From the IMG/VR virus record IMGVR_UViG_3300021091_000024: a stretch of 55,045 nt of DNA. One strand, written 5' to 3'. Made by a program: the position numbers and the translations under genes. The notes under the pieces were generated by a model. It searched no databases. It was given only the letters and a program-made list of their open reading frames with translations, and was not told the DNA's origin. This DNA comes from an uncultured virus (IMG/VR IMGVR_UViG_3300021091_000024) (taxonomy: Duplodnaviria; Heunggongvirae; Uroviricota; Caudoviricetes). Shown here one piece after another: positions 1,206 through 19,728 of the stretch (position 1 is its first letter; each line of letters starts with the position of its first letter).

Positions 1206-1699
1206 TGGTTATCTCCTTTTCTGACGATGATGCTTGTTTTAAGCTGCCCCGTCTCGCAGTACATATCGGGATTGATTCCAATATTGTTGAGTTCTTTGAC
1301 CCGCCAGTAGGAGGGTGCACAGTATGTAAAAATTTGCATTGCAATGTCTTCGGGGGAATTTAGAATTTCCCCCGTATCCATGTCAACCGACATTTGGGAA
1401 AGCCTGTCAACAACGGCACGAGCAAGGTCTTTGTGTTGCCATGCCTTACGCTCGTACGAACTCTTCTTCTCAATGAGGGCGTTACCATCAAGTGTGACTA
1501 CAGACTCCCCGGCCATCATCTCTCCAAACTTTGCCGAAAATGAGTCGTAGATAATGGAGAGGTCTCTCTTAATGAGGTTAAGAGCAAGCAGGGTATTCCC
1601 CACTTCGACAACATCTCCGGACGACTCCAGCAGTTTGGTGAGGTCGGAATCTAGGGATAAAATAAGTTCCTTGATTTCGTCAATCTTTTCCATAGACAA
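1202..1699 (-). CDS. hypothetical phage protein
   Basis: 165-aa ORF, translationally coupled (ATGA overlap) to the Rad52-like gene. Confidence 0.7.
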   Translation of the reverse strand: MSMEKIDEIKELILSLDSDLTKLLESSGDVVEVGNTLLALNLIKRDLSIIYDSFSAKFGEMMAGESVVTLDGNALIEKKSSYERKAWQHKDLARAVVDRLSQMSVDMDTGEILNSPEDIAMQIFTYCAPSYWRVKELNNIGINPDMYCETGQLKTSIIVRKGDNQ

Positions 1700-1757
1700 C
1701 GTTTAGTAGCGCTTTCTTGTAGGTAGGTGGGTAGGTATTGCCGGCGATAATTCCGAC

Positions 1758-3129: not shown

Positions 3130-3309
3130 ATGCCAAAACTTATAGAAAAAGTCCGGGCAAAGACGACTCGGGCATTGTTCGCTTATATTTTCATGCTTTC
3201 ATTTATACTATTAACCAGTATTGGCGCTGCGTTAATATACCCTCCTGCCGGCTTACTGGTGGGAGGGACAACGTGTGGTCTTTTTGGCTACCTCCTAGGT
3301 CGTGAGTAG
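3130..3309 (+). CDS. small membrane protein preceding the portal
   Basis: Manual translation: MPKLIEKVRAKTTRALFAYIFMLSFILLTSIGAALIYPPAGLLVGGTTCGLFGYLLGRE (59 aa, two hydrophobic segments). Ends 5 nt before the portal ATG. Confidence 0.7.
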   Translation: MPKLIEKVRAKTTRALFAYIFMLSFILLTSIGAALIYPPAGLLVGGTTCGLFGYLLGRE

Positions 3310-3314
3310 GAAAT

Positions 3315-5417
3315 ATGGCTTGGAATTCTCCGGTAAATAAATCCCTTTCCAATGAGAGTAATAAAGAAATAGGCCCAGGAGCACCAGTAGCCAACAATCC
3401 CGGACTTGCGGGGAGGGCATATAGGGATTCCTGGGACATTGAAAGGGCATACCGAGAAGGGATGCAGAAAGTCACGTGGGTGGCTAGATGTATCGACGCA
3501 ATTGCCGGGAACCAGGCAAGACTCCCAATAATCCTCAGAAAAGATAACTCTCCAGATGGCGAGATTCTTTCAAAAAGGGCTTCTCAAAACTCCGAGTTAA
3601 TGGAGATTCTCAATACAAAATCGAACATCGGAGAAAACGCCTTCATCTTCAGATACAGACTTTCGGCACAGATACTTCTTGGAACTCGCGGTGCATTTGT
3701 GGAGAAGGTGCGAGGAAGGGACGGCGGGATAGTTGGACTGAACCTTCTTCCCGCACAGTCAACGGCGCCAATACCAGATGCAAAAAAGTTTGTTTCTGGT
3801 TATGAGGTGACAATGCCGTATGGACAAAAAGTCATACTGAAAAAAGAGGACGTAACCTGGATTAGAAGGCCTCATCCACTCGACCCATACCTGTCCTTAA
3901 CTCCCCTTGAATCAGCTGGCGTTGCTATAGAGATAGAAAATCTAGCGAAGCTCTACAACAGAAACTATCTCCTGAACGACGGCAGACCTGGCGGGCTGCT
4001 TGTTCTCCGTGGGGAAATAGATGATGACGACAAAGAAGAGCTGCGCAGCAGATTCAGGGGGAACCTATCGCGTGTTGGATATACATCCGTTATCTCTTCT
4101 GATGATGGCGTTGATTATGTAGACACATCCGCAAATCCAAGAGACGCTGCCTACATACAGATGAGGCAGTTAACTAAGGAGGAAATTCTTGCATCATTCG
4201 GAGTTCCAGAGTCTGTTATTGGAAACGCTTCCGGTAGAACGTTTAGCAATGCTTCGGAAGAGATTCGTGTCTTTTGGATGGAGACGATGCTTCCCCATTT
4301 GGAGATTCTTTCACGGGGTCTAGACGAACTAGACGATAAGAACTACGTCGATTTCGACACAAGCGAAGTTCCAATCCTGATGCTCTACAAGCAGGAAAGA
4401 CATCGCTATTTGATGGATGAATTCCAAAACGGCCTAATCAGCAACAACGAGTACAGAATTCTTTCCGGAAGAAAAGAAACAGAGTCAGACCTTGCTGATT
4501 CGCTATTGCTCAATCCAAACCTGATTCCGATTGCCAATACTAAGAAGAAAATGGAGGATAAAGCTTCCGCGACCGTCCCTGGTGCTCCAGGTATGCCGGG
4601 GATGCCTCCGGGTATGCCGGGGATGCCCCCAGGTATGCCGGGGATGCCTCCGGGTCCAGAGCAGATGGTGCCAGGTGCCGATGGCCAACCACTTGACCCA
4701 AATACTATGGCTGGGGCAATGGCGGAAGTTACGGCGCAGGGTGGCGGGGAGTTGGCACAAGCGCCGATACCGGGTCTACCCACTCCCCCGCAGCCAGAAG
4801 CAATGCCAGCAGGAATGTCAACGGGAATGGCACCAGTTCCATCGGGAGCAGCCTCAATCGATAATGCGGATATTCAGACCAAATCAGAGCAAGAAGTTGA
4901 GGTGCAGAGATGGGAAGAGATTCTCTATCGGAGCATAGAGAGGGTTCTTGAAAGACAGCAGCGCGTTGTTCTCGAGAAGTCGAGCGGTGCAAAGGCCAAA
5001 AAAGCACTTGTGGCCGGAACTATCGATATTCCATCAATACTTCACTCCGAGACATGGGATAGACAATTTGAGGACGACATCAAGCCGGTCATAACAGCAA
5101 TAATCAAGGAATCTCAGGCAGCATCGGGTGTGAAGATTTCTAGGAAATCCTCCAAAAATCATTTAATTGAATCTGATGTTTCTGTTCAGGTTGAGTCTCA
5201 GATGGAGAGAATCAAGTCGATTAACTCCGAAATGACATCAGAAATAACAAATATCATGCTTGCCTCTCTTTCAGTTATCGGTGAAGAGCAGAGAGTGAGC
5301 ACATTTAGGTCGAATATCGTCTCGCTGTACACCAATTTGCTTGGGAAAAGACTCCCAGAGATTGCCGAGGACGAAACTCGTAGGGCCTGGCTATTCGGCC
5401 AACACTTAACTAGATAA
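3315..5417 (+). CDS. HK97-family portal protein with Pro/Met/Gly-rich linker and C-terminal extension
   Basis: WVARCIDAIAGNQARLP, LSLTPLESA, NGRPGG-like LNDGRPGGLL, EEILASFGVPESVIG, TFSNASEE, GLISNNEYR. Lies directly upstream of the prohead protease. Confidence 0.92.
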   Translation: MAWNSPVNKSLSNESNKEIGPGAPVANNPGLAGRAYRDSWDIERAYREGMQKVTWVARCIDAIAGNQARLPIILRKDNSPDGEILSKRASQNSELMEILNTKSNIGENAFIFRYRLSAQILLGTRGAFVEKVRGRDGGIVGLNLLPAQSTAPIPDAKKFVSGYEVTMPYGQKVILKKEDVTWIRRPHPLDPYLSLTPLESAGVAIEIENLAKLYNRNYLLNDGRPGGLLVLRGEIDDDDKEELRSRFRGNLSRVGYTSVISSDDGVDYVDTSANPRDAAYIQMRQLTKEEILASFGVPESVIGNASGRTFSNASEEIRVFWMETMLPHLEILSRGLDELDDKNYVDFDTSEVPILMLYKQERHRYLMDEFQNGLISNNEYRILSGRKETESDLADSLLLNPNLIPIANTKKKMEDKASATVPGAPGMPGMPPGMPGMPPGMPGMPPGPEQMVPGADGQPLDPNTMAGAMAEVTAQGGGELAQAPIPGLPTPPQPEAMPAGMSTGMAPVPSGAASIDNADIQTKSEQEVEVQRWEEILYRSIERVLERQQRVVLEKSSGAKAKKALVAGTIDIPSILHSETWDRQFEDDIKPVITAIIKESQAASGVKISRKSSKNHLIESDVSVQVESQMERIKSINSEMTSEITNIMLASLSVIGEEQRVSTFRSNIVSLYTNLLGKRLPEIAEDETRRAWLFGQHLTR
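4587..4655 (+). repeat. 21-nt tandem repeat (x3+) encoding PGMPGMP in the portal linker
   Basis: cc(a/g)ggtatgccggggatgcc(t/c) repeated three times. Confidence 0.9.
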
Positions 5418-5517: not shown

Positions 5518-6040
5518 ATGTCAAAATCCTTCGTGAATCCTGAAATTCAGTACAAAGCTGCCACTCAGGGTGCAATAAACCTAGACGAAGCCAGGGGCAT
5601 AGTCGAGTGTTTCGTGGCAGGAATTGGCAACAAGGACTCCGTTGGCGATGTTTGCGCCCCTGGGGCATTCGCCAAAAGCCTATTGCGCCGGAAACCAAGA
5701 GTTGTGTGGGGCCATAACTGGAACGACCCAATCGGCAAGGTTCTAGAAATTTACGAAGTTCCAGCAAACGACCCAAGACTTCCGAGCAAGATGAGAGCAG
5801 CGGGTATTGGTGGGCTCTACGCAAAAGTTCAATTCAACCTAATGTCAGAAAAAGGCAAGGAAGCATTTGCGAGTGTTGCATTCTTTGGCGAAGAGCAGGA
5901 ATGGTCAATTGGGTATAAGACAATCAACGCAAAATTTGACCAGCAGATGCAGGCGAATGTTCTATTTGAGGTAGAGCTTTACGAGGTGAGCCCTGTTCTT
6001 CACGGTGCAAATCAATTGACTGGAACAATATCTGTTAAGT
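5518..6040 (+). other. domain: HK97-type prohead protease (peptidase S78)
   Basis: GNKDSVGDVCAPGAFAKSL, VVWGHNWNDPIG (His), WSIGY (Ser), LYEVSPVLHGAN. Confidence 0.9.
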
Positions 6041-9000
6041 CGGATGAAAATAATGCCACCGCAGTGATGGAAAGGGCTGTTAGTTCCATCGCGAATGCCG
6101 ATAGTGAAAATTCTCCGGAACTAAAAGAGGTTCTATACGCACTCAGAAATATTGCTTCCATGATTTCCGATAACGAGAAGCATGAGTATGGAATGCCCTC
6201 AGTAATGCCTTCAGCAAATAGACAACCTATTCCATCAATGCCAAGCCCTGCTCCGTCCACGGCGCCGAGGTCAGTAGTCAAGCCAACAAGACCATCTATC
6301 CCTGAAAACCCCATGGTAGTTGCTCTTCGCCGTGAGCTGGTCGCAAGAACTGGGTCGAACATAATTGTCCGCTCTGCTGGAGACAATGTTGTTGTATTTG
6401 ACCGAATTATGAGCGACGGTTCGTCTTGCACGTACAGACTTGCGTATCACTATGCAGATGGTGAATTCATGTTTGGTAAGCCAGAGAAGGTCAACGCGCA
6501 GACCGTTTACACTCCCGAGACTCCTGGGGCACCAGGAGATGCATACTGGGGAGACGATTACTCAGAAACACCAAAGTCATTGCAATCTGGTGATTTTTGG
6601 AGTGCCGGTTTTTATAGCGAGCTGACCTCGCAGCCAGACACAAGCAATGCCCTCATGGAGGTGATAGAGAGTCTTCAACATCTAATCAATGAAAAATCGG
6701 AATACGTAATACCAGTAGAGCCGGCAGAGGCTTTTGAGTTAAGGCAAATGATTGACCCAGTTCTCGAGTATTACAACGCTGACGCCAGAGTAACCGAGGA
6801 GGGGATTGTAGTTAAGTCAGCACACAATCCAGAGCTAATTGAAGCTCTTGATGTCGCGACTAAGTCCGTGCTGGGAAAAATCCGAAGGGGCATTGGCGCT
6901 GGAAGGCGTCTTGATGCTCCAAACATTGGTGGCGGTAAAGGTCGTAGCAGAGCAGCGCGAGCAATTGGCGCAGCAACTGGCGGTGTAGCTGGAAATCTAG
7001 ACCCTTCAAAAATATCTCTCAACGACCCGGACGGAGACGGGTGGGCCAGAGAGGGTTCAAGAAATCCTGTTTGGGTTGGGTTTAAAAAAGCAGTAGAAAA
7101 AATTGCGGGCAGCGTTGGCCGGAAGAAGAAGCCATCAAAAGACAAGCAAAGGGCCCGCTCTGCTGTTAATGCAGATAAACCCGGTCCGCCGAGAGTAAGG
7201 TCCGGAGCGCCGTGGGATGCTCCATTAACTCCTGCTCCGCCTCGTCCTAGCAGAGTGACGCTTACAGATGATGCTGGAGCAAGACTAAGAGAACTCGGCA
7301 AAGAAAGAGCCAGAGAGCTTGGCTTTGACAGAAACATTGACCCCGTCCTTCCAAGACCGCGCAAGAAACTTACAAACCAAGTATCCGCTGCCCCACGCCC
7401 TGGAGAGGGCAGAAGTAGGGCATCGGGCGAATCAATTGCGAATGCAATACGTCGCTCAAAGAGCGCACCAAACCCTGTCCTTGGCCAGGAAATGGCAAAT
7501 GATGTAGCTAAGTTCGGCTACCCGGAAGAGATGTCAACGGATGACCTAGTGAGAACGGTCGGCAAATTTAGAGGAGAAATAGCCAAGGCTAGAGAGAATC
7601 TAGAAAAGATTCAGGCAGATAGAGACTCTGGCAAAAAAGTATCTTCTTCAGAAATCGGAAAAGCTAGACAAAGTGTCGACTCCCTCCGTCAGAGAGCGTC
7701 TGTTTACTCATCCGAAATATCAAAGCGCGACAAAATAAAAGGTTCCGACAGATTCTCTTCAGGAAAAGCCATTACCCCAGAAGACAGACGCAAAAGAAGA
7801 CATGCTCCGCTGGGTACAACTGGAGAATTTGACCTTCCAGACGAAGTTGCCACAAGAAATAAGCACGAAGAGTTTGTAGCAGAATTTAGAAAAAACAACG
7901 GATTTTGGCTGGATATCCCAAGAGAGGGAACCGTCGCTTCAATGAATACGTCGGAGGAGTGGCAGAGGGCTAGAGAAATAGCAACAAACGTCGGGATTCT
8001 TGAGTGGCAGGAAAATGAAAGAAATAGAAGGCCGAAGGGTTTTAGCGAAAAAGCGCGTTCGTCCATGGACTACCTAACATGGTTCGGTGGATATACAAAG
8101 CGCCTTGGTGACTATCTCGATAGGGAAGAGTCCAGTGAAAATGTAACCGATGACGAACTTGCTGGTGCAAGGGCGGCAGTACTAGATGCATTGGCATTCA
8201 GAATGGCAACGCCAACTGGTCCAGAAAGCCAAAATACGCTTGCGGCAATGCTCGCAGACGCCGGATTCGGTCCAAATGGAAAACACGAAAAAGCATTCGG
8301 TGGGCGCAAGAAATCCAGCGTTGTTGGATTCTCTTCTGGTCGCGGAAACAGAGTAGACACTCGAGTGCTAGACCAACTTATGAACGATGGTAAAGAGGTC
8401 AGCGACGATGACGTGAAGGCAATACTTATGCCTAACGCCGGCATATTGATGCATCCAGAATATAACGACAGAACCGGCGAGGTATCTCTTGGCTGGAAGA
8501 ACGTCCTAGAATCCTCATTAGAGGACAGGAGTTTCAATAGGGGTTCCCAGAGGGCGATGATTCGCCTTGACGATGAGGGTTATCAAAAATTTACAGAGGC
8601 ACTAGAAGCAGCAAATGGAGAGCTGACCCCATCGGACGGCCTGCCATCTAGCTCAAGAAGCGTAAGGGACAGGGAATACCCATATTCATGGGGCAAGTCT
8701 CGAATGGGGGCTTTTTCATCTGGGCGCAAGTATCCACCAGAAATAGAAGACGAGCTTGTATTCGATTCCGAACTGGGCGGCAATAGAGCAGCAGACAGAA
8801 TCAATACCGAAAATGTCGACATGGAGATAGTTCCATCTTCCGATATTGGCCTTGATGGTCCAGATGATGGAGCATGGACTGTTGTCGGCATGTACAGGGG
8901 AGAAGACTATGGCTCCGTCGACTACATCTATGAACTAGATACTTTTGATTCGGTAGAAGAAGCAAGACGCTTCATAGAGACATTTGACAGATTGATAGAT

Positions 9001-12000
9001 GAGGAAATTAGACCTGGCGACCCAGATTTCTTCCTCGATATAGATAACTACAACAAAGACAACAAAATATCCCTGGATGATGACCTTGACTCCGCTATAT
9101 CTAAGGCTGTTCAGTCAAGAAAAGATAGAGAGAACGACCCATACGACTATGGCAGTCTCCTGTCATCAGTTCTTTCCGACAGGTCATTAAACCTTTTTGG
9201 TGATGGAGAATCAAGATTCTCTTCCGGAAGAAACAAAGCAGAAAGACGCCAATCTGTCAAGAGAGTCATGGCAGAAGATATGGCCGATAGAGAGGTCAAT
9301 CTAGGAATACTTTCTCGCCGCATGAAGGGTGAAACCCTGGACGAAGTAGGTAGAGCATACGGAATAGACAGGGGAACAGTCCGCCAAATGGAGATGCGCG
9401 AGATGAAGCGTCTCAGGGATGGAGCAACACCAAGCGAAATACTTGCCTACAGAATGACAGGCCTCACACTCGACGATATGGGCAGAATGCTCGGCATGTC
9501 CCGTGAAGAGGTTAGAAGAATCGAGTCTAGAGAAATAGCACGGATGAGACTCGGCGGTCGCGACGGAAGCGACGCGATATTCGAGGGTCGTAAAGCTGGT
9601 CTAAGCCGCAATTCAATCAAAAAGCTAACTGGCATGTCTATGGATGACATAGCGACTAAGGAAAGAAAAGGATTTGAGAGGGCCGTAACACGAGAAGATG
9701 TCTCTCATCAGATATTTGACAAATACGTAACTAGATTCGGCGAAGACGAACTAACTGATGCGGAACTTGCGGAGGAGCTAGGGGTTAGCGAAAGAATTGT
9801 TTCCGAAGTTCGCGCGGGGGCAAAGAAAGACATACTCGATGCCCGTCGTGGCATGGACGAACACTACAGCAGCCTTCCGGAGCCAACCGACGAAGAGCTT
9901 CAGGAGATGGCAGACTACTATGCAAATGATTTTGCTAGAGAGCAGGGTTTTGGCTCCTATGCGGAGTATAAGGATTATGTTTCCAGTGTCGGCAGGGAAG
10001 ACGATGGAGAGAGGCTGTCTTCTGGAGCAGGTAAGCGCGACCTTACATTTAGTCAAAAAGTTGGTCAAAGAGTATTTGAGGAAGCAGAAAAGATAGCCAA
10101 AGAAGACAATAGGGACATTTTCGACACCCTGGATTCGCTCGTCTTTGATAAGCGCATGGATTCAACGAATCGTAGAAAAGATTTCGATGTAGCAGAGATG
10201 TATTCTCACATTAATTCCCTTCTTTTCCCAGAGGGTGCTAGAGAAAGCAGGAAGCGCAGACTCTGGAGAAGAGAAAGACTCTCCTCTGGCAGAACCGGTA
10301 GAGGTCGGAAGAATCGGCGACAGGGCAAATCAAATCAGGGAGCATGGTCAGAAGAGGACCTTCAGAGATTCCGCGATAGAAATGTTCTACGCGCCAAAAC
10401 TCGTCCCGGAAAGCGCAAGGATGGCCCATCAGCGGAAGAATTCTCTTCTGGACGCAAGAGAATAGATACGGCCGGTAGTTCAGCGCTGACTGGAGCATTC
10501 TACGATGCCGACAACAAAAGGCTTGTTGTCGGATTCAACAAGGGTGGGGTATATGCCTATGACGGCGTAACCCCAGAAGACATAGAAGAGATGCACAATG
10601 CCGAAAGCAAAGGTGCAGCTATGGCTTCTATCAAGAAGAAGTACAAAGGCGTAAGACTTTCAGAAGCGGACGACAGCTTTAAGGCCACCAAACAGGGTGA
10701 CGAATGGGTTGTAAATCCAGATAACGAAACGACTTACTCAATATCCGAAGACGGTGGAGAGTTCTTTGTTCTGAGAACTTCTGGAAGCTACGCACGCGAT
10801 GGCGGCCAGTCTGGAGATGAGTACTACCATCCAGAGTCGTTTAAGAATATGGACTCCGCGATGAAGTGGGTCGAGCAGGACTTCCTGCCATCAATAACTC
10901 CAGAACCGTGGGACGAAGATGACTACGATGTAGACAGGCTTTCATCTGGTGGGCCAGCTCGCGCCGCAGCCCAGATGCAATTTGATACTCGTAGAAGTAG
11001 AAAAGCGACAGAAATGACATACGACCCGCAAGACGGTCGTGTTGGAATAACTTATAACGATGGAAAGCAGAGATTCTTCTCCGAGGTGCCTTACGAGGTT
11101 GCTAGGGCGGCAGGCAATCCATCAAAAGATATAGACAACTTCATTGATGACCTAGAGCGCGGGAAAGTGGGCAAGGAGGGCGGAAGATTTAGTTCCGGTG
11201 CAAGCTCGGTGCCTCGCACTGACTTTGATTACTCCTATCAGAAGTTCCCACCGACAGAAGAGCAGGCAGTCATTGCGGATGCGGTGGCGACTGGCGAGAA
11301 CGTAATTGTAAGAGCATTCGCCGGCACTGGCAAAACTTCTACTCTTGTAATGATTGCTGAGAGACTGAAGCGTCAGGACCCAAAGAAGAAAATCGTCTAC
11401 ATGGCGTTCAACAAGGACATCCAGCTTGAGGCTGAGGGAAAGTTCCCTGGCAATACAGAGTCACGAACAGGCGACTCCATATCGTGGAACTGGGTCAAGC
11501 AGACAATGGGCGAAGCCTTCACGGACAGAATGAAGGGCAACCCACCAGAAAGAGTGAAGTCAAAGGGAACAAGAAACAAGGATATATCTATTCATTTCAA
11601 GATTAAACAAATGGAGCATCCGGACGGGCTAAAAGATGAGAAAACCGGAAACCCCATAGTCCTTGATGCTGTTGATGTTACAAAGCTTGTAAGAGAAGCG
11701 GTTAAAGAATTCCTTATTTCGGAAGACGATGAGATAGGCACACAGCACTTTAAGAAAATACAGAATGTTCCACCAGCTCTTTTGGGACATGCCAAAGCTA
11801 TATGGGATGACATGAACGACCCTGATGGCGTGATGAAATTGGATAACTCCGTATTCACCAAGATGTGGGCACTATCTAGGCCTCAGCTCAGTGACGGTGT
11901 CGGTCTATTCAAAGGAAAGCCATCAGTAATATTCTTTGACGAAGCTCAGGACATAAACCCAGTAATGGCAAAAGTCATGCGGGAACAGAACATCCAAGTT

Positions 12001-15000
12001 ATATTTGTTGGAGATAGTTACCAGGCTATTTACGGATTCCGTGGAGCATCGGACAGTCTCGAGAAAGCGGAAGCCACATATGACTTGCCTCTCACTGGGT
12101 CATGGAGATTCGACAGCAAGATAGCTGGATACGCAAACAGATTCCTAGCGTACATGGGTTCAAAAGATAGAATTCGTGGCGTAGGAAAGCCGGGTGATGG
12201 TGTTGTTGAACCAGAGTCGATGGTTGACCCAGATGCAATTCTGACAAGAAGTAACGGTGGGGCGCTACGTGCAGTTGTTGAGCAAATAAAAAACGGAAGA
12301 ATCGTAGGGACTTCGGAAAACTTCAAGAAAGACCTAACGAAATTCGCATGGCACGCAATAAGTCTCAAGGCCGATAAGCCAGTAAAAAATCCACATCCAG
12401 AACTAGAGGAATTCTCTTCATGGCAGGAGGTTACAGATGCAGCCAACGCCGAGGATGCAAGCCCTCGACTAAGAATGCTTGTACAGCTATTCAATGACAC
12501 ACCAAACATTATCGAGATACTGGACCAAGTCGTTGTCGGTGGCAAGCTCAGGGGGGAATCTGGTGGAGGCTCCGGCAAGAGGATTCTTCCTAGCGAAGTA
12601 ACAGATGGCTTTGAGATGTCCATAGACCCAAGCAGTCTGGGTAAATGGGCAGGAGACAAAAAGACATCCGTTTTGTACAAAAATGGAAAACTGTTCTTTC
12701 AGTTGCCATACACAGCAAAAGGCTCATCTGGTGATGACAGCAAAAAGAGCTGGATTAAAGAAAACTTAGGAAAAATCAATCGCTTTGAGTATGGCAAGCC
12801 AGAAGAGACTGGCGGCAAGTTTGCAGTATTCGTAGACGCAACACCAGAACAGGCTGCAAAACTTCTCTCCGGAATAACATCGGGTGATGCTCAGGAAGTA
12901 GACGTCATGGTAATGACGGCACACAGGTCAAAGGGTCTTGAGTTCGGAAAAGTTCAGCTTTACGGAGACTTCCCAAGACCAAGAAAGAACAAGAATACCG
13001 GTGAGATGGAGTACCCAGCTCCGGAAGAGCAAAGACTTCAGTACGTTGCATCAACTAGGGCCATACGCGAACTAGACCCAGGCCCAACTTCATGGATATA
13101 TAACGAAACATCTGAAGATGACGAAAGCCCAGGCGTACCTAGTGGTTTCTCGTCTGGCGCAAAAGGTAACCCAATGCCGAGCGCCATTGGTAAGGACATG
13201 GTTCTAGAAGACGGCGGCACATACGAAGACAACATGTTTAGGGGCACGTACGTTGCCGACTTTAATGGCGGGAAGATGGTAATCCAGCCGGCAGGCAGGG
13301 ATTCGTGGGCTGTTTACAGGGCAGACTTTATGGGCGGCGAAGATGGGCCTTCTTACAACTTCAGCTATGGTCCACCAACGGACGAGTCTGAGTTCAGTTC
13401 ACTCGCAGACGCATACGAGCATGTTCTCAATTATGTAAAAGACAACGACATAACGCTTGACCAGATGGATGGAAGTCGCCGCTCAAAGGGGAGTGAGTCC
13501 TTCTCGGTGGCAAAAATCGGAAACTCCGGTTCTGGAATATCTGAAAGATTTAGCTCAGGTCGCAAGAATGCCGATAAAAGATTAAAGGCAGCTAGAAAAT
13601 TTTCAAGGGGGGGAGATGCCGATGATGATGGTCGTCTGTCTTCTGGAAAGAGAGATTCTGACGAAGGGTTCGCATCGGGCCGAATACTGTCTCGACTTCG
13701 CGGCCGAGAAGAAACCACTCAGAAAGAAGCAGATGAACTCTATAAATGGGCGGCGGAAGCAAGCAAGAAGCGTCCCGACGACGAATACTTGAGTCGCGTT
13801 GTTGGTAAGGGCTCAGAATACGGAGAAGGTCTAGACGAAAAAGACTTCGAATACATACGCCAACAACAGCTCATTGATTTTATAGTCGATAACGACCTGC
13901 ACCTACGCGACCCGGAAGGAGCTGGTCGAATATTAGATATATGGACCGGTGAAAGCCGGGGAAGAATTAAAGATAAAGACTGGGAGGCCCTGTCGGAACT
14001 CCGATACCGGCGCCAACAGAGAGAGGACGACGCATTTAATCGTGAAGCATTAAAGGACGTTGCCGAATCGCAAGGCATGCCACGTGACGACCAGCAAAAA
14101 CTTGCCATTTTTGCGTGGGCGGCTTCTCGATTTGGGAAATATCCACTGGTAGAAGACGTCGTGAGAGGTGGGAGAACAAACATCCCAAACAGCCTCGACG
14201 ACAGAGAATGGAAATTTCTTAAAACCGAATGGCTCAACAGCGACGCTCCAGACCCACAACCACTCAACACTAGAATGACCAATGGTGACATGGGCCCAGA
14301 TAGGTATCTAGAACAAGACTATCTAGCGTACATGCGCGAGAGCGGTATGACCGGCTTGCTGGAAAAGTACCAGACGCGAGGTGGACTGACCGGCAAAGAT
14401 TGGGCTTATGTAAAGAAGTTACACGACGACCTTGGCCCAAGGGGATGGCGAAATCCAAAGAGTGCCTCATACAGGGGAATAACTAGAAAAGAAAGAAGGG
14501 AAATTGACAAAAAAACTGGACGCCTGAGTGATTGGGATGTTCTGACCGAGGCACAAAGAGCTTCACTAGAGAAGCGCAAGGAAAAATTCAACCTTACAGA
14601 ATCAATGGCCAACGCGCTTTCTTCAGGCCGTACCACCCCGAATAAGCCCAAACAGGATGATGGTCGTTTGTCTTCTGGCGGTGACCCTACTCCTGAACAG
14701 ATTGAAGCCGAAGACAGAGAAAATAGGGCTGACTTCTACAAGAACAGCTCTGGTCTTTATGAAAATGAACTTGCCGAATGGCTGGATGCAAATCCAAGCA
14801 AGACAGAAAAAGACTATGAGTCAAGCCCTGAATTTGCAGAGAGACTTGACGATATGGACAGCATCATGGGCGATTTCGCCGATGCTGAGGCAGAACGTCG
14901 TCTAGATGATTATGCAAATCGCATGTCGTCCGGGGGAAAGCCACCCCGTTATCCACGACCCCCCACGCTCGGAGCGTTTCTCGGTTCTACGGATGACTTA

Positions 15001-18000
15001 TTCAAAAATGTAGATTCATGGGAAGATTTCAGGAATATATACAACGACCAAGAAATCATATTTTTTGATTACGAAACTACCGGTTTAGTATTTGATGAAT
15101 TCGGCAGAGCGACTAGCAACGGAGCACCAGTTCAGTTTGGTGCAGTAAAAATTAAAAACGGCAAAGAAATAGGCCGAATAAACCTATTCATGAACCCCGG
15201 CGAGTCGCTCGGAGAATGGTCGCGAAACAATCTCAAAGACATAGACGGAAATCCACTAACAGATGACTGGCTTGGTGGACAGATTTCCGTTGAAGATGCT
15301 CACAAACAGCTAATCGAGTTCGCTGGGGCTGATGCAATATTCGGAGTTCAAAATGCAACGTTTGATAAAGCTGTTTTGGACGATGTGTTATCAAAAATGA
15401 AATCGGACTGGAGGCCGTCAGGCTACATAGATACACGAGAGCTCGCAAGCCTTGTGCTCCCCAGATGGACACCAGAAACAGAAGATGGGCCATTTCAGAC
15501 AAACAAAGATGGTGAAAAGGTCCCTTCCTCAAGTCTTGCCGCAATTACTGAATATCTTGACGTTGAGCTTGGAGATGGCCACCACAACGCAGATGTTGAT
15601 GCTTTCGCAGCAAGCGAAGTAATGAGAAAAATGATTGATGGGGCAATCGAAAATGATTGGTCGCGAGATGCCCTATCAAAAGAAAAACGTGATTCTCGTC
15701 ATGCGGAAACGATTGCAAAATTTGAAGAGAGCGTTCGGCAATTTGAGTCAGAATTAAGCCAGTATGGTCTATCTTCTGGGCGCCGCCAGCGGCCATCTGA
15801 TGAGGAGATTTATAACCTCAGAATGTCTGGCCCAACCCTAGAGGAAGTCGGGGAGAAGTATGGAATGACGCGCCAAGAAGTGCGCGCTGCAGAAATGCGC
15901 CATATCAGGAAAATGCGTGATGCCGACTTTGAGGCAACTGGGGCACAGACATCTAGAAGAGAGCGTCGTCTATCTTCTGGAGGGAGACCCACACGCGCCG
16001 GTTCAGCAAAACAAAGAGGGAAAGTAGTCCTCACAAGCCAAGAACCAGGCGGTAAGTGGACTGACGTACCAGAAAACCAACTAAGTCGAAAAGACGATTT
16101 CTTTGACAATGAAACAGCTTCAAGAATATTGGATAACCCACTAGAGAATTACAACGACCAAACCGGCTGGCCAGTAGCTGCTAGGGATTTCTTCCAAAGC
16201 CTAGTTTTGCAGCAAGAAGGAAGAGACATTCCTGTAATGGATGAAGATGGAAGGTTCACGCCTGAAGGACGCAACCAAGTCAAGAAGATGCTTTTCGGCT
16301 CTAATGAAGCAAGGGAAAAATTCCTAGACCAAATAGAGTCAGGCGATGTATCTCATATGCAGGCCGTTGCGGCTATCACAATTCTCGAAAAGCTTGGCGA
16401 CGATAATACAAAACTGGGCCCAAGGGGTGCTTCAGACCACATGTTGGAAACATTTGGGTTTAAGTCTGCACCAGTCTGGGTTTCTGGCCTGGATTCAAGA
16501 GACCCCGACTACGACCTTATAAGAGGAGAGGTCAACTGGACTCCGTTGTCCGAAGAGCAGTGGCTTGATGAGGTCAAGCAGGCGTATGTTGATAACAAAA
16601 ACATAACCAACTATGTTGGAAATAGAAGAGATTGGGTTACAAAGAATAAGGGCAAGTCTGAAAAAGACTACGAATCAAGTCCTGAATTCATCGCAGACGC
16701 TAAGCGCGCATACTTGGAGAACAAGAACACCATTGGTCCTGCAGAAGTCTACTCTCACCCATTCACACATTTCTATGGGATGCGTGAAGAGCAAAAAGAT
16801 ACAGTCAAGAAGAATTGGCTTTCCCAGAACCCTGGCAAAACAGACGCTGATTACGACAAAGCAATGTCGTGGGACGGAGAGGGTGACCCTGACAAGTCAA
16901 CGGAAGCTGGAAGTTGGGGATTTGGAGACCCACGCAGTCTTGGTGGGAAACCATCTACACAGGCAGATGGTGCTTCTAGTAAGAGGCCGACTTCAGCACG
17001 GGGTACGACTAAGAGGCCGACTTCAGCACGGGGTACGACTACTTCTTCATTGCCGCCGGAAACGACACAGAAGCTATTCCAAGCCATAAAGCTCGATACG
17101 ATTCTGTCGGCGCTTGGTATAAAAGACGATGTTACCAGAGAAGAACAAAGAAAGAAGCTTTCTGAACTTATTGGATTTACGATAACGGAGGACTCATTCA
17201 AGGGCTACAAGCGCACGGGTCCGAGGCCAAGAATTATTCTGGAACTTCTACGCAGGGGTCACATTAAGGACCTAGATTCGCTACGCGAAGCCGACAGGAC
17301 AGATGCAAACCTGGGGAACCTTGTCAATCAAGCAAGAGACTCAGTTTTCATTGCTACCGCATACGGAAGACTGCGTGAAGCAGCAAGAGGTGCTGGTTTG
17401 TCTGAGGATTCATTTGGAGCAAGGCTTTGGGGGAGACTCGGGAAAGAATACGAAGACCATGTTATTAATGGTAAGGGGCAGCCAAGAAGCAGGATGGCTG
17501 ACGGTGCAATTCCAAAAACGTTTAACCTAAGCAAACTAGACCTTATTGGGGAAACGGAACTGTCAGAACTTGTTGACGGCCTAAATGCAATGGCTGAATC
17601 AGAGGGCTCTTCTGCTCGGTTTACGATTGACGATATATTCCCCAAGAACGATAGAGGTTACATCGATGCATTCGGTGAATCAAAGATAAGAATGAGCAGC
17701 GGAAAACCATCTACGCAAAAGGGACAGAGATTCGTTGCCAAGCCTAAGGGGAATAGGCTAACCAGTGCTGCAAATGACACTGCTGAAATGAGATTCTCCT
17801 CGGCGGCTAGACCAACGTACAGAACACCTGGCGGAGGAATCGACAAAGATGCAATGTCTGCAGATATTGAAGATGCGATTCGCGGTCCTCGACTTGGCGC
17901 TGTTGCAATAACTTCTGCAAATGCAGAAACGGTCGGCAGAGAGCAAGTAGATAATCTCACTAGAGCCATAACTCTTCGTCAGCACATAGCAGACATGTTC

Positions 18001-19728
18001 CCAAGCGTTGTTAACGATAGAACACAGGTCTCCTACGATATAGAGCCTCTCCTGACGGAGCAAGGCATAAGTCCAAAAGATGCAGAAAAACTGACAGACC
18101 TAGTTAACGACCTAGATGAATACATCGACGGGATAGTTAAGCAGTTCGAGGACGAGGGTGACAAGCTAGAAAGCGGTCTGCGCGAAATGACAGACATGCT
18201 CGACGAGGTATCTGAGCTACGTAAGTATCGCAAAGAGACAATCGACAAGTATGGCGAAGATGACGCAAGAAACTTGATAGACAGACTTGACGAAAAGATA
18301 AATAAACTTACGACATCAATTGATGACAAGTATCAGGCTACCATAGGTAGCAACAGAACAAACATGGCAAAACTTCGCGATGAAGCGCTTGCCTTGGTTG
18401 ACGAAAATCCAGGGTTTGACAGGCCAAAGAAGGGCGGCGACAAGCCGCGCCTATCAAGCGGCGCCAACTCCCTGTCGTCGAAGCTGATAGGCATTGAAAT
18501 GGCCATGGGCCGAGCCGAAGAAGGCGGTCTACCTAAATACAAGCCGGTCAGCAAGATGGACATGAACCTTCCAAACGGAACGCGCCTGTCTTCTGGCAAG
18601 GCTGACGAATGGTACGAGAACCTGACAGCGAAGCTTGTAGAGCAGATTGAAAAGATTCAGGCATCGGGCGGGGACAAGTGGGAATTCCCATGGCATCGAA
18701 CTGGGGCCATGCCGAAGAACGCAATCAGCGGCCACGTTTTCTCTGGTATGAACCCATTTGTCCTGTTGCTTGCTGCTGATGAAAAGGGTTACTCAACACA
18801 CCGCTGGGCTACATACAAGCAGTGGCAGAGCGTGGGTGGAAATGTAATGAAGAACGAAAAGGGCCAGACACTCCTGAAGCCAGTTTTCAAGAAGGTTAAG
18901 GACCCAGACACAGGTAAAGAAGAGACAAAGCTTGTCAACTGGAGCGCATATACCGTGTTCAACGTTGCCCAGGTGGAGGGAATAAATCCAGAAGATTACG
19001 ACGACAAGCCCAAAGACCTTCTTGATGAGGCAGCCAGAGTGGAGAGGGCCGAAAAAGCATTCGCCATAGTCGGTGCAGACATAGAAACCGGAGATGGCTC
19101 ACGTGCTTACTACAGCCCGTCAAACGATAAGATAGTTATGCCGCCGTTTGCTTACTTCAAGACCCCAGAGGGCTACTACGCGACCCTTGGCCATGAGCTT
19201 GTTCACTGGACTGGACACTCCTCCAGACTTGATAGGCCAAACATGAACCGCTTCGGCACCCCTGCATACGCTCGGGAGGAATTGGTTGCAGAGCTTGGCT
19301 CGGCTTTCTTGATGGCCAATTTCGGCATGGCTGCAGAGCCACGAGAAGACCACGCTCACTACCTGGCCAACTGGCTAAAGGTTTTGCGCGAGGAGCCAAA
19401 GGCCCTACAAGAAGCAGCAAGAGAGGCCCAAAAGGCGTCGAAGCTTCTCATCGAAAAGATGAGGGAAGTGCTTGAGGGTGCCGAAGTAGCCGAAGAAACG
19501 CTTGATGATGTTGACGGGACGAAGAGCGCATGGGTCGGAATGTCTGACGACATTGGGAGAGAATCACTGCTCCAGGTTGCAGGCATTCTTCCCGCATACC
19601 TACGCATGGAGGTGGAAGCGGCCATTAAAAGCACCGCCCCAGGGGGACCCCTATCAACTAAGGTTATTAACAGAATTTCAAAAACAATTGAACTTCTAGA
19701 GACATTCTCAAAGCAAAAAGGTATTTGA
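5518..19728 (+). CDS. giant (4736 aa) prohead-protease fusion / polyvalent polyprotein
   Basis: Uninterrupted ORF with RBS aggag at ~5509. Contains an N-terminal HK97 protease, HTHs, KTSC x2, an SF1 helicase, a DEDDh exonuclease and C-terminal ArdC. 20 [FLM]SSG motifs. Confidence 0.93.
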   Translation: MSKSFVNPEIQYKAATQGAINLDEARGIVECFVAGIGNKDSVGDVCAPGAFAKSLLRRKPRVVWGHNWNDPIGKVLEIYEVPANDPRLPSKMRAAGIGGLYAKVQFNLMSEKGKEAFASVAFFGEEQEWSIGYKTINAKFDQQMQANVLFEVELYEVSPVLHGANQLTGTISVKSDENNATAVMERAVSSIANADSENSPELKEVLYALRNIASMISDNEKHEYGMPSVMPSANRQPIPSMPSPAPSTAPRSVVKPTRPSIPENPMVVALRRELVARTGSNIIVRSAGDNVVVFDRIMSDGSSCTYRLAYHYADGEFMFGKPEKVNAQTVYTPETPGAPGDAYWGDDYSETPKSLQSGDFWSAGFYSELTSQPDTSNALMEVIESLQHLINEKSEYVIPVEPAEAFELRQMIDPVLEYYNADARVTEEGIVVKSAHNPELIEALDVATKSVLGKIRRGIGAGRRLDAPNIGGGKGRSRAARAIGAATGGVAGNLDPSKISLNDPDGDGWAREGSRNPVWVGFKKAVEKIAGSVGRKKKPSKDKQRARSAVNADKPGPPRVRSGAPWDAPLTPAPPRPSRVTLTDDAGARLRELGKERARELGFDRNIDPVLPRPRKKLTNQVSAAPRPGEGRSRASGESIANAIRRSKSAPNPVLGQEMANDVAKFGYPEEMSTDDLVRTVGKFRGEIAKARENLEKIQADRDSGKKVSSSEIGKARQSVDSLRQRASVYSSEISKRDKIKGSDRFSSGKAITPEDRRKRRHAPLGTTGEFDLPDEVATRNKHEEFVAEFRKNNGFWLDIPREGTVASMNTSEEWQRAREIATNVGILEWQENERNRRPKGFSEKARSSMDYLTWFGGYTKRLGDYLDREESSENVTDDELAGARAAVLDALAFRMATPTGPESQNTLAAMLADAGFGPNGKHEKAFGGRKKSSVVGFSSGRGNRVDTRVLDQLMNDGKEVSDDDVKAILMPNAGILMHPEYNDRTGEVSLGWKNVLESSLEDRSFNRGSQRAMIRLDDEGYQKFTEALEAANGELTPSDGLPSSSRSVRDREYPYSWGKSRMGAFSSGRKYPPEIEDELVFDSELGGNRAADRINTENVDMEIVPSSDIGLDGPDDGAWTVVGMYRGEDYGSVDYIYELDTFDSVEEARRFIETFDRLIDEEIRPGDPDFFLDIDNYNKDNKISLDDDLDSAISKAVQSRKDRENDPYDYGSLLSSVLSDRSLNLFGDGESRFSSGRNKAERRQSVKRVMAEDMADREVNLGILSRRMKGETLDEVGRAYGIDRGTVRQMEMREMKRLRDGATPSEILAYRMTGLTLDDMGRMLGMSREEVRRIESREIARMRLGGRDGSDAIFEGRKAGLSRNSIKKLTGMSMDDIATKERKGFERAVTREDVSHQIFDKYVTRFGEDELTDAELAEELGVSERIVSEVRAGAKKDILDARRGMDEHYSSLPEPTDEELQEMADYYANDFAREQGFGSYAEYKDYVSSVGREDDGERLSSGAGKRDLTFSQKVGQRVFEEAEKIAKEDNRDIFDTLDSLVFDKRMDSTNRRKDFDVAEMYSHINSLLFPEGARESRKRRLWRRERLSSGRTGRGRKNRRQGKSNQGAWSEEDLQRFRDRNVLRAKTRPGKRKDGPSAEEFSSGRKRIDTAGSSALTGAFYDADNKRLVVGFNKGGVYAYDGVTPEDIEEMHNAESKGAAMASIKKKYKGVRLSEADDSFKATKQGDEWVVNPDNETTYSISEDGGEFFVLRTSGSYARDGGQSGDEYYHPESFKNMDSAMKWVEQDFLPSITPEPWDEDDYDVDRLSSGGPARAAAQMQFDTRRSRKATEMTYDPQDGRVGITYNDGKQRFFSEVPYEVARAAGNPSKDIDNFIDDLERGKVGKEGGRFSSGASSVPRTDFDYSYQKFPPTEEQAVIADAVATGENVIVRAFAGTGKTSTLVMIAERLKRQDPKKKIVYMAFNKDIQLEAEGKFPGNTESRTGDSISWNWVKQTMGEAFTDRMKGNPPERVKSKGTRNKDISIHFKIKQMEHPDGLKDEKTGNPIVLDAVDVTKLVREAVKEFLISEDDEIGTQHFKKIQNVPPALLGHAKAIWDDMNDPDGVMKLDNSVFTKMWALSRPQLSDGVGLFKGKPSVIFFDEAQDINPVMAKVMREQNIQVIFVGDSYQAIYGFRGASDSLEKAEATYDLPLTGSWRFDSKIAGYANRFLAYMGSKDRIRGVGKPGDGVVEPESMVDPDAILTRSNGGALRAVVEQIKNGRIVGTSENFKKDLTKFAWHAISLKADKPVKNPHPELEEFSSWQEVTDAANAEDASPRLRMLVQLFNDTPNIIEILDQVVVGGKLRGESGGGSGKRILPSEVTDGFEMSIDPSSLGKWAGDKKTSVLYKNGKLFFQLPYTAKGSSGDDSKKSWIKENLGKINRFEYGKPEETGGKFAVFVDATPEQAAKLLSGITSGDAQEVDVMVMTAHRSKGLEFGKVQLYGDFPRPRKNKNTGEMEYPAPEEQRLQYVASTRAIRELDPGPTSWIYNETSEDDESPGVPSGFSSGAKGNPMPSAIGKDMVLEDGGTYEDNMFRGTYVADFNGGKMVIQPAGRDSWAVYRADFMGGEDGPSYNFSYGPPTDESEFSSLADAYEHVLNYVKDNDITLDQMDGSRRSKGSESFSVAKIGNSGSGISERFSSGRKNADKRLKAARKFSRGGDADDDGRLSSGKRDSDEGFASGRILSRLRGREETTQKEADELYKWAAEASKKRPDDEYLSRVVGKGSEYGEGLDEKDFEYIRQQQLIDFIVDNDLHLRDPEGAGRILDIWTGESRGRIKDKDWEALSELRYRRQQREDDAFNREALKDVAESQGMPRDDQQKLAIFAWAASRFGKYPLVEDVVRGGRTNIPNSLDDREWKFLKTEWLNSDAPDPQPLNTRMTNGDMGPDRYLEQDYLAYMRESGMTGLLEKYQTRGGLTGKDWAYVKKLHDDLGPRGWRNPKSASYRGITRKERREIDKKTGRLSDWDVLTEAQRASLEKRKEKFNLTESMANALSSGRTTPNKPKQDDGRLSSGGDPTPEQIEAEDRENRADFYKNSSGLYENELAEWLDANPSKTEKDYESSPEFAERLDDMDSIMGDFADAEAERRLDDYANRMSSGGKPPRYPRPPTLGAFLGSTDDLFKNVDSWEDFRNIYNDQEIIFFDYETTGLVFDEFGRATSNGAPVQFGAVKIKNGKEIGRINLFMNPGESLGEWSRNNLKDIDGNPLTDDWLGGQISVEDAHKQLIEFAGADAIFGVQNATFDKAVLDDVLSKMKSDWRPSGYIDTRELASLVLPRWTPETEDGPFQTNKDGEKVPSSSLAAITEYLDVELGDGHHNADVDAFAASEVMRKMIDGAIENDWSRDALSKEKRDSRHAETIAKFEESVRQFESELSQYGLSSGRRQRPSDEEIYNLRMSGPTLEEVGEKYGMTRQEVRAAEMRHIRKMRDADFEATGAQTSRRERRLSSGGRPTRAGSAKQRGKVVLTSQEPGGKWTDVPENQLSRKDDFFDNETASRILDNPLENYNDQTGWPVAARDFFQSLVLQQEGRDIPVMDEDGRFTPEGRNQVKKMLFGSNEAREKFLDQIESGDVSHMQAVAAITILEKLGDDNTKLGPRGASDHMLETFGFKSAPVWVSGLDSRDPDYDLIRGEVNWTPLSEEQWLDEVKQAYVDNKNITNYVGNRRDWVTKNKGKSEKDYESSPEFIADAKRAYLENKNTIGPAEVYSHPFTHFYGMREEQKDTVKKNWLSQNPGKTDADYDKAMSWDGEGDPDKSTEAGSWGFGDPRSLGGKPSTQADGASSKRPTSARGTTKRPTSARGTTTSSLPPETTQKLFQAIKLDTILSALGIKDDVTREEQRKKLSELIGFTITEDSFKGYKRTGPRPRIILELLRRGHIKDLDSLREADRTDANLGNLVNQARDSVFIATAYGRLREAARGAGLSEDSFGARLWGRLGKEYEDHVINGKGQPRSRMADGAIPKTFNLSKLDLIGETELSELVDGLNAMAESEGSSARFTIDDIFPKNDRGYIDAFGESKIRMSSGKPSTQKGQRFVAKPKGNRLTSAANDTAEMRFSSAARPTYRTPGGGIDKDAMSADIEDAIRGPRLGAVAITSANAETVGREQVDNLTRAITLRQHIADMFPSVVNDRTQVSYDIEPLLTEQGISPKDAEKLTDLVNDLDEYIDGIVKQFEDEGDKLESGLREMTDMLDEVSELRKYRKETIDKYGEDDARNLIDRLDEKINKLTTSIDDKYQATIGSNRTNMAKLRDEALALVDENPGFDRPKKGGDKPRLSSGANSLSSKLIGIEMAMGRAEEGGLPKYKPVSKMDMNLPNGTRLSSGKADEWYENLTAKLVEQIEKIQASGGDKWEFPWHRTGAMPKNAISGHVFSGMNPFVLLLAADEKGYSTHRWATYKQWQSVGGNVMKNEKGQTLLKPVFKKVKDPDTGKEETKLVNWSAYTVFNVAQVEGINPEDYDDKPKDLLDEAARVERAEKAFAIVGADIETGDGSRAYYSPSNDKIVMPPFAYFKTPEGYYATLGHELVHWTGHSSRLDRPNMNRFGTPAYAREELVAELGSAFLMANFGMAAEPREDHAHYLANWLKVLREEPKALQEAAREAQKASKLLIEKMREVLEGAEVAEETLDDVDGTKSAWVGMSDDIGRESLLQVAGILPAYLRMEVEAAIKSTAPGGPLSTKVINRISKTIELLETFSKQKGI
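9290..9670 (+). other. domain: tandem sigma-70 region-4-like HTH repeats
   Basis: GETLDEVGRAYGIDRGTVRQME and GLTLDDMGRMLGMSREEVRRIE resemble sigma region 4.2 TLEEVG..fgvtrERiRQiE. A weaker third copy follows. Confidence 0.7.
10460..11160 (+). other. domains: two KTSC-like domains (~10460-10650 and ~10980-11160)
   Basis: SSALTGAFYDADNKRLVVGFNKGGVYAYDGV...AESKG; degenerate second copy MTYDPQDGRVGITYNDGKQRFFSEVP. Confidence 0.75.
11200..13140 (+). other. domain: UvrD/REP-like superfamily 1 helicase
   Basis: AFAGTGKTS, YMAFNK, FFDEAQD, VGDSYQAIYGFRGA, LTGSWRF, MTAHRSKGLEF, YVASTRA. Confidence 0.92.
15040..15760 (+). other. domain: DEDDh 3'-5' exonuclease (DNA Pol III epsilon-like)
   Basis: ExoI FFDYETTG, ExoII QNATFD, ExoIII HHNADVD. 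Confidence 0.9.
15790..15925 (+). other. domain: single sigma-70 region-4-like HTH
   Basis: LRMSGPTLEEVGEKYGMTRQEVRAAEMRHI. Confidence 0.7.
16981..17040 (+). repeat. exact 30-nt tandem duplication (KRPTSARGTT x2)
   Basis: aagaggccgacttcagcacggggtacgact twice. Confidence 0.95.
18600..19480 (+). other. ardC: domain: ArdC-like antirestriction module (ssDNA-binding N-domain + zincin/MPTase)
   Basis: WEFPW...PKNAISGHVFSGMN...WATYKQWQSVGGNV...VFNVAQVEG; AYYSPSNDKIVMP...HELVHWTGH...YAREELVAELGS...YLANWLKVL. Confidence 0.9.

Follow-up and report, generated by a model that had tools for sequence, protein, structure and literature searches.

The processing of internal head proteins by a prohead protease is known from phage T4, where gp21 acts in conjunction with capsid-targeting sequences, and from phiKZ, where gp175 has this role. 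Cargoes of the T4, phiKZ and SPN3US type carry N-terminal propeptides and are cut after Glu; the consensus of T4 gp21 is (L/I)-x-E↓ and that of assemblin (V/L/I)-x-A↓S, the arrow marking the scissile bond. In SPN3US, the prohead protease gp245 cuts many ejection proteins at a consensus motif, according to the available part of the report (PMC10052503). Polyvalent proteins are likewise known, having been defined by Iyer et al. (2017; PMC5512222), in whose available text their delivery with the DNA and their processing by peptidases are predicted. The present analysis concerns a window of 55,045 nucleotides (nt), the whole stretch analysed, which is part of the IMG/VR record IMGVR_UViG_3300021091_000024 (an uncultured member of the Caudoviricetes; 119,344 bp, CheckV completeness 79%). 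Within it, a 4736-amino-acid (aa) open reading frame (ORF), hereafter the giant, combines both known elements in one chain: an N-terminal Peptidase_S78 prohead protease domain is followed by a series of polyvalent cargo modules, and the chain is punctuated by a repeated x-[F/L/M]-S-S-G motif. This motif is probably a proteolytic processing signal of some kind, and on balance the giant is best read as a head-packaged polyvalent polyprotein processed by its own fused S78 protease.

As in the polyvalent proteins of Iyer et al. (2017), one polypeptide unites numerous domains for effector functions and DNA handling, ArdC-N and a zincin MPTase among them: S78, sigma-r4 helix-turn-helix (HTH), KTSC, UvrD helicase, RNase_T, ArdcN and MPTase-PolyVal domains were all found in the single ORF. 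In the available text of that paper, processing is assigned mainly to MPTases, assemblin-like peptidases are described as 'always' C-terminal and a repeated cleavage signal does not appear, whereas here the S78 domain is N-terminal and a motif recurs at about 20 joints, with dialects that differ between lineages. The likeness to T4, phiKZ and SPN3US lies in a capsid protease and a short consensus found in many head-packaged proteins, sometimes at several sites per protein; the cargoes of those phages are, however, separate genes, while here they form one chain fused to the protease, with the sites between modules and a conserved Ser. The giant is not a member of the T4-type class of cargoes with capsid-targeting sequences, as its cargo is covalently joined to the protease and its sites are internal, although it may work alike. 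Pfam places the N-terminal domain in Peptidase_S78, with herpesvirus assemblin and the HK97 gp4-type proteases, and the assemblin consensus has the same shape as the motif core; unlike in those systems, the capsid protein here lacks the full motif, and no solved structure was matched by sequence (aa 1-481 searched against PDB sequences, nothing at E ≤ 1). The combination of an own protease in one product with repeated short linker sites recalls the polyproteins of RNA viruses and retroviruses (3C, NS3, Gag-Pol), but this is a tailed phage with double-stranded DNA, and the products are probably injected accessory proteins rather than replication or structural core proteins. No switch between short and long forms was recognised, there being no A-run at the protease-cargo junction; the only run of at least 7 A in the giant gene is at nt 14509. 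Gordonia phage DalanDe gp27 (ON755184.1, L104:5632-10533), annotated as 'capsid maturation protease' (1633 aa; S78 domain 42.8% identical), is a large fusion too, but in the opposite arrangement, with S78 at about aa 1124-1296 behind an unannotated N-terminal extension of about 1120 aa. No published description of a repeated [FLM]SSG site was found in the literature, which was searched mostly at abstract level.

The sites were located with the regular expression [FLM]SSG over the translated ORF, which returned exactly 20 matches in the giant (Table 1), compared with 0.34 expected from composition; 5000 shuffles averaged 0.34 and never exceeded 4. F, L or M precedes 20 of the 22 SSG tripeptides of the protein, and its commonest tetrapeptides are LSSG (10) and FSSG (8). 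The residue before the motif is R at 14 sites, G at 3, A at 2 and E at 1; the residue after it is R at 8 and K, A and G at 4 each. The variants FSRG (F at nt 13600), FASG (13669) and FSSA (17794) are also present in the translation. An earlier note on this DNA had listed the 20 sites, by the codons of their preceding residues, together with the usual R in front, the R/K/G/A behind and the three variants, and all of these agree with the scan. Its list was right for the giant and overlooked five further sites, three in a second giant ORF and two in a tape-measure-like ORF that lies outside the window. Its remark that it knew of no account of such an explicit repeated site is not contradicted by the literature searched.

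All three sites of the second giant read R-[MF]-SSG and none is N-terminal of aa 1457. The tape-measure-like protein, whose identity was judged by eye from glycine-rich segments and a C-terminal segment resembling a zinc D-Ala-D-Ala-peptidase, has two R-L-SSG-A sites. For the form [RK][FLM]SSG, 3 sites were observed against 0.019 expected in the second giant and 2 against 0.02 in the tape measure, counts equalled in 0 of 3000 shuffles each, and none was found in the 205 other stop-to-stop ORFs of at least 100 aa (40,066 aa). The enrichment over shuffled sequence and over the other proteins of the phage, proposed in the earlier note as a check, is thus evident. In relative G005 the second giant is longer (3517 aa) and has 9 sites, all after aa 1470, and in two other lineages it measures 1481 aa and 1744 aa and has none. 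Both of the SSG genomes examined (one of them G005) have the tape-measure motif, at two positions that align; the tape measure of the GFASRG-dialect genome G001 has a GFASGG variant in the same Gly/Pro-rich region, and those of three G[LM]RS genomes have no motif.

The sites of the giant lie between its domains. None of the 20 falls inside the Pfam/PHROG envelopes, which are those of Table 1 with KTSC taken as aa 1652-1715 and which cover about 32% of the protein. Several sites stand 4-12 residues upstream of a domain start, and there is no internal site in the helicase piece (653 aa) or the exonuclease piece (282 aa), as expected if the motifs bracket the recognisable domains. Two stretches were modelled with AlphaFold from shallow alignments of unaltered fragments of relatives. 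In aa 730-1905 (mean predicted local distance difference test, pLDDT, 54.5; 51% of residues below 50), 9 of 9 sites are in coil with pLDDT<50; in aa 2535-3500 (mean pLDDT 57.5; 43% of residues below 50), 6 of 8 are, and the other two (aa 3136 and 3485) are at the edge of such segments. As both models are weak overall, the linker placement that they indicate is used as supporting evidence only. In the ten positions that flank the motif on either side, G, S, P and charged residues abound, and hydrophobic residues make up 16% and 13.5%, against 26.7% overall. A cut after the second Ser of every site is predicted to give 21 pieces of 748, 192, 128, 168, 266, 88, 54, 166, 83, 653, 134, 29, 327, 17, 85, 282, 67, 574, 253, 45 and 377 aa; some sites are paired at a distance of 17-54 aa. 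The very basic 54-aa peptide between two sites (nt 10279-10452, aa 1588-1645) is 62% identical in relative G005 and, instead of serving as a linker, may function as a small DNA-binding product.

Relatives were sought with aa 1-481. A scan of IMG/VR gave 543 matching stretches, from which 79 loci were kept, and among 1.84 billion cluster representatives 3674 matched at E ≤ 1e-3, of which 282 reached E ≤ 1e-30; many of the matching representatives are giants with an N-terminal protease, of up to 5358 aa. The co-linear relative L006 (81% identical) shares the motif core at 46 of 48 positions and differs from it only by L/F swaps, while its flanks (±12 residues) are 68% identical and so below the protein average. 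Distant relatives use other dialects, namely K-L-SSG, D-G-F-A-S-R-G and G-[L/M]-R-S, to which a wider survey added G-L-SSG, G-L-A-S, G-M-A-S and G-S-R-S. Among 73 related ORFs, 37 have [FLM]SSG, 12 G[LM]RS and 5 G[FLM][AS]S[RG] (GFASRG), and no protein mixes dialects; the remaining 19, with fewer than two sites, include complete cargo-free forms of 659-733 aa, in which the motif is absent, and a few ORFs cut by contig ends. The dialects share a core of a hydrophobic residue, then S/A/R, then Ser, which can be pooled as [G/R/K]-[L/F/M]-[S/A/R]-S. This pooled core, [GRK][FLM][SAR]S, in which Ser is invariant by construction of the pattern, is enriched (a minimum of 4 sites and a count above that of every one of 200 shuffles) in 47 of 84 representatives of at least 1000 aa, where the first site usually lies at aa 470-800, just past the conserved N-terminal part.

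Each lineage places its own dialect at orthologous borders: on the N-side of ArdC (8 proteins), on the C-side of ArdC, at a KTSC-like module and on the C-side of the helicase. The modules between these borders are reshuffled. ArdC is last in this phage, stands mid-chain with the helicase after it in L034/L035, and follows the helicase in L059, and the complete relative G005 has a homologue of the exonuclease module in its second giant. In BLAST comparisons with seven relatives, 34 of 80 ends of homology blocks (42.5%) lie within 15 residues of a motif, compared with 14.9% for circularly shifted sites, the observed value being reached in 11 of 5000 shifts (P ~0.002). These comparisons support motif-flanked modules as the units that are gained, lost and reordered between relatives, in keeping with the earlier suggestion that the motif marks the unit of module gain and loss. 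All the computational checks proposed in the earlier note, on enrichment, linker position and homologous borders, turned out in favour of its idea of a cut chain.

The earlier note had also placed the constraint on the peptide rather than on a DNA repeat, which holds in the main. All six Ser codons are used at the motif, and their use, with the core kept while the flanks drift, argues for selection on the residues. A DNA repeat as the main cause was ruled out by the six Ser codons and by the varied Leu, Phe and Gly codons, although a residual codon bias remains: TCT occurs at 11 of 20 and 12 of 20 of the two motif Ser positions, against 19% of the other 337 Ser codons (p 4e-4 and 7e-5). The excess is similar in G005, L016 and L059, and the GFASRG dialect prefers TCA (10/14 against 29%). 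Constraint thus acts chiefly but not exclusively on the peptide, and the codon preference indicates that the linkers keep a DNA-level memory, through shared descent, gene conversion or recombination at the joints.

The protease itself is a constant partner of the motif. An S78 domain heads every motif-bearing giant compared, its gene lies directly after that of the portal protein and upstream of the capsid gene, and neither this record (79% complete) nor a complete relative has an S78 match outside the giant. No ClpP or S49 match was obtained in the two, and the search for S77 was uninformative, its control being silent. With S78 alone and no ClpP or S49 match, the fused enzyme must be the capsid protease, which would place the chain at the procapsid and makes S78 the most economical candidate for the enzyme that cuts it. 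H66 and S130 of the domain are invariant in an alignment of 16 diverse relatives; we take them to be candidates for the S78 catalytic pair by analogy with the family, not by structural alignment. The motif-free remainder of the N-terminal part (aa 173-745) is presumed to be a scaffold or capsid-targeting part. At aa ~495-525 (nt ~7000-7090), close behind the conserved N-terminal part, a D-x-D-x-D-G-like acidic stretch followed by E-G-T/S is conserved in most relatives and may be a metal-binding loop. The relatives L038:5072-7195 and L057:3588-5552 have an inserted Cys-rich segment with several C-x-x-C-like pairs between the protease domain and the conserved C-terminal part, which resembles a zinc ribbon.

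A mechanism can be proposed on this basis. The S78 domain (HK97 gp4-type, assemblin-fold), together with the next 300-550 conserved residues, would take the chain into the procapsid, where the x-[F/L/M]-S-S-G motifs in the disordered joints between modules would act as protease recognition sites. A cut beside the invariant Ser would yield some 20 pieces, comprising an ArdC anti-restriction protein, a UvrD-like helicase, a DnaQ-like exonuclease, sigma-r4-like HTH proteins, KTSC domains, several uncharacterised domains and short basic peptides, and these would remain inside the head until injected into the host together with the DNA. By analogy with the assemblin and T4 gp21 consensus sequences, the cut is expected after the invariant Ser (hydrophobic-x-Ser↓Gly, with a hydrophobic P3 and Ser at P1), a cut before that Ser being the alternative. 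Transfer with the DNA into the recipient cell is suggested by the fusion to the capsid protease and by the position in the head module. The same signal would mark the add-on modules of the second giant and the two places in the tape measure.

Several observations weigh against this proposal. No close relative is in culture, and we infer cleavage rather than observe it; the AlphaFold models that place sites in linkers have low confidence and shallow alignments; and the TCT excess at the motif Ser is a DNA-level component. The protease gene of DalanDe lacks the repeated motif, and no dialect motif was found in the capsid proteins of three dialect lineages (71-86% identical). The first 200 aa, which hold the S78 domain, are 74-86% identical across all dialects, and in a protease tree (aa 1-340, a quick search only) GFASRG forms one clade, SSG needs 4 changes and G[LM]RS needs 3. 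Together with the high identity of S78, this tree means that the dialects are not simply explained by co-evolving protease specificity: either only the shared core is read by the enzyme, with concerted drift at the additional positions, or cargo arrays are exchanged by recombination among phages. The tape measure, moreover, is not a head protein, yet bears the motif in two lineages, which suggests either that cutting takes place outside the closed procapsid or that a different enzyme is at work. A complex prediction for S78 (aa 1-200) and a 40-aa linker with site 9 scored 0.00 and was not used as evidence. Loose hydrophobic-x-Ser candidates near the expected maturation point of the capsid protein were rejected as evidence, the pattern being too common.

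If another enzyme is responsible, the nearest candidate is the zincin MPTase-PolyVal domain at the C-terminus of the same protein, which might cut the sites in the head or after injection. The domain (aa 4509-4635) has an HExxH that is visible in the translation, ArdcN and MPTase occur together in 8 of 8 complete SSG or GFASRG giants, and tape-measure sites were seen only in MPTase-bearing lineages; processing of polyvalent proteins by MPTases was proposed as a general rule in the available text of Iyer et al. (2017; PMC5512222). The G[LM]RS giants, however, have repeated sites without an MPTase: in 6 of 6 complete ones S78 is the only Pfam domain, and PF18818 was absent from the three G[LM]RS records searched, which are 31-45% complete. 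The MPTase, furthermore, always travels with ArdcN as an ordinary ArdC module, itself bracketed by motifs and mobile along the chain, and we regard it as a rather improbable cutter. A host protease acting on the chain and the tape measure after ejection, with dialects that track hosts, would suit the decoupling of the dialects from the protease tree, and also the fact that both giants and the tape measure, the three carriers of the motif, would all be expected to leave the virion at infection. Two phage-encoded proteases nevertheless stand in the same chain, the absence of the motif from cargo-free relatives is what either model expects, and we know of no host protease with this specificity, so that this account appears very doubtful. 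Self-cleavage by N-O acyl shift and 2A-like skipping were set aside, the sites being in disordered linkers without a surrounding fold and unlike the 2A consensus.

That the motif is not cleaved at all is also unlikely. It could be a conserved flexible joint, a recombination-favoured junction, or a docking or threading signal for the packaging or ejection of an uncut chain, and the codon bias (TCT in SSG lineages, TCA in GFASRG), the clustering of homology breaks at motifs, the dialects that deviate from the tree of a barely changing protease and the motif-free capsid protein would all agree with this. Giant packaged proteins are on record as well, namely the N4 virion RNA polymerase (PMC5512222) and phi24B gp47 (bioRxiv 10.64898/2026.04.10.717836), in the available parts of those sources. 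The use of six Ser codons and the core kept at 46 of 48 positions between drifting flanks point instead to selection on the residues; a pure linker would need no invariant pair of Ser and hydrophobic residue, the paired sites resemble the excision of a spacer, and the cargo-free short forms lack the motif. Processing by the fused S78 protease is the reading retained here, with processing of some kind held more firmly than the identity of the enzyme.

A wider version of the S78 reading, which we put forward tentatively, is that of a clade-wide, evolving punctuation code, [G/R/K]-hydrophobic-[S/A/R]-Ser, read by the front-fused assemblin-fold capsid protease. Any module placed between two marks in either giant would be packaged, cut free and delivered, and the tape measure would also be processed, in which case the enzyme would act outside the closed procapsid. 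Such a code would be the counterpart in double-stranded DNA phages of the polyprotein strategy of RNA viruses, and mature virion cargo would be predictable from sequence. If the motif is a cut site, about 20 injected proteins can be read from the sequence, including uncharacterised domains as candidates for anti-defence or takeover functions, and the same reading would extend to hundreds of related metagenomic phages. It would also provide the first specificity rule for a cargo-carrying S78-type prohead protease, explain how giant polyvalent proteins function despite their size, and offer a handle on the long-standing prediction that polyvalent proteins are processed; cassette-swapping evolution of injected arsenals would then be visible in the dialects and in the exchange of modules at the marks.

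Table 1. Genes, domains and motif sites of the window, with the tape-measure-like ORF of the same record. Motif sites are given from the F, L or M.
Feature	Position (nt)	Position (aa)	Strand	Remarks
Terminase	1758-3086		-	
Portal protein	3315..5417		+	Pfam Phage_portal 159.5 bits; without motif
Giant ORF, 4736 aa	5518..19728		+	N-terminal S78 prohead protease and polyvalent cargo chain
Peptidase_S78 domain	5599..6033	28-172	+	Pfam 35.2 bits (cut-off 21); phrog_3244 head maturation protease 4.7e-14
Motif-free N-terminal remainder	6034..7752	173-745	+	conserved to about aa 480, then basic low-complexity stretch
Site 1, FSSG	7753..7764	746	+	pLDDT<50 coil
Site 2, FSSG	8329..8340	938	+	pLDDT<50 coil
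Site 3, FSSG	8713..8724	1066	+	pLDDT<50 coil
Site 4, FSSG	9217..9228	1234	+	pLDDT<50 coil
Sigma70 region-4-like HTH repeats	9316..9852	1267-1445	+	Pfam Sigma70_r4 52.9 bits; phrog_351
Site 5, LSSG	10015..10026	1500	+	pLDDT<50 coil
Site 6, LSSG	10279..10290	1588	+	pLDDT<50 coil
Site 7, FSSG	10441..10452	1642	+	pLDDT<50 coil
KTSC domain	10477..10626	1654-1703	+	Pfam 45.6 bits
Site 8, LSSG	10939..10950	1808	+	pLDDT<50 coil; dialect equivalents at same border in G001, L034
Site 9, FSSG	11188..11199	1891	+	pLDDT<50 coil
UvrD-like SF1 helicase	11224..13077	1903-2520	+	Pfam UvrD-helicase, UvrD_C, AAA_19; phrog_1967 1.7e-79
Site 10, FSSG	13147..13158	2544	+	pLDDT<50 coil
Site 11, FSSG	13549..13560	2678	+	pLDDT<50 coil
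Site 12, LSSG	13636..13647	2707	+	pLDDT<50 coil
Site 13, LSSG	14617..14628	3034	+	pLDDT<50 coil
Site 14, LSSG	14668..14679	3051	+	pLDDT<50 coil
Site 15, MSSG	14923..14934	3136	+	predicted helix end, edge of low-confidence segment
DnaQ/RNase_T-like exonuclease	15046..15708	3177-3397	+	Pfam RNase_T 31.7 bits; phrog_192
Site 16, LSSG	15769..15780	3418	+	pLDDT<50 coil
Site 17, LSSG	15970..15981	3485	+	helix end, edge of low-confidence segment
Site 18, MSSG	17692..17703	4059	+	
Site 19, LSSG	18451..18462	4312	+	
Site 20, LSSG	18586..18597	4357	+	4 residues before ArdC; own-lineage motif at same border in 7 relatives
ArdC module, ArdcN and zincin MPTase-PolyVal with HExxH	18598..19467	4361-4650	+	Pfam 84.6 + 150.9 bits; phrog_7245 anti-restriction protein 1e-79
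ORF, 525 aa, no function assigned	19816-21393		+	41-nt overlap with start of second giant
Second giant ORF, 2213 aa	21353..27994		+	without family match; first ~1450 aa motif-free, then add-on modules
Second-giant site, MSSG	25721..25732	1457	+	
Second-giant site, FSSG	26126..26137	1592	+	
Second-giant site, FSSG	26783..26794	1811	+	
Five ORFs	between second giant and capsid gene			four without Pfam match, one DUF3721
HK97-fold major capsid protein	33800..35131		+	~140-160 aa N-terminal extension; Pfam Phage_capsid 149 bits; without motif
Tape-measure-like ORF, 1655 aa	G000:C1:31967-37045 (L089:65-5032)	sites at 39 and 682	-	outside window; two R-L-SSG-A

The C-terminal module of the giant has the make-up of ArdC, an ArdC-N domain that binds single-stranded DNA followed by a zincin domain with HExxH. 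The N-terminal 1449-1450 aa of the second giant gave no Pfam or PHROG match, no tblastn match in GenBank phages and only sub-threshold matches in the ESM Atlas; the synteny of this motif-free part is kept across four lineages. In three other lineages examined, an ORF of 467-523 aa occupies the same position as the 525-aa ORF between the two giants.

The nearest GenBank phages are actinobacterial, namely Brevibacterium phage Cantare and Gordonia phages of the GMA6/DalanDe kind, at a distance of 48.6% identity in the capsid protein and of 39-43% over the protease domain only. Immediately downstream of the capsid gene is one for a DUF6321/DUF5872 protein (35278-36531). Further downstream are those for a class II (B12-type) ribonucleotide reductase (37699-39624, minus strand) and a Toprim/AAA_25 primase-helicase (41994-43736).

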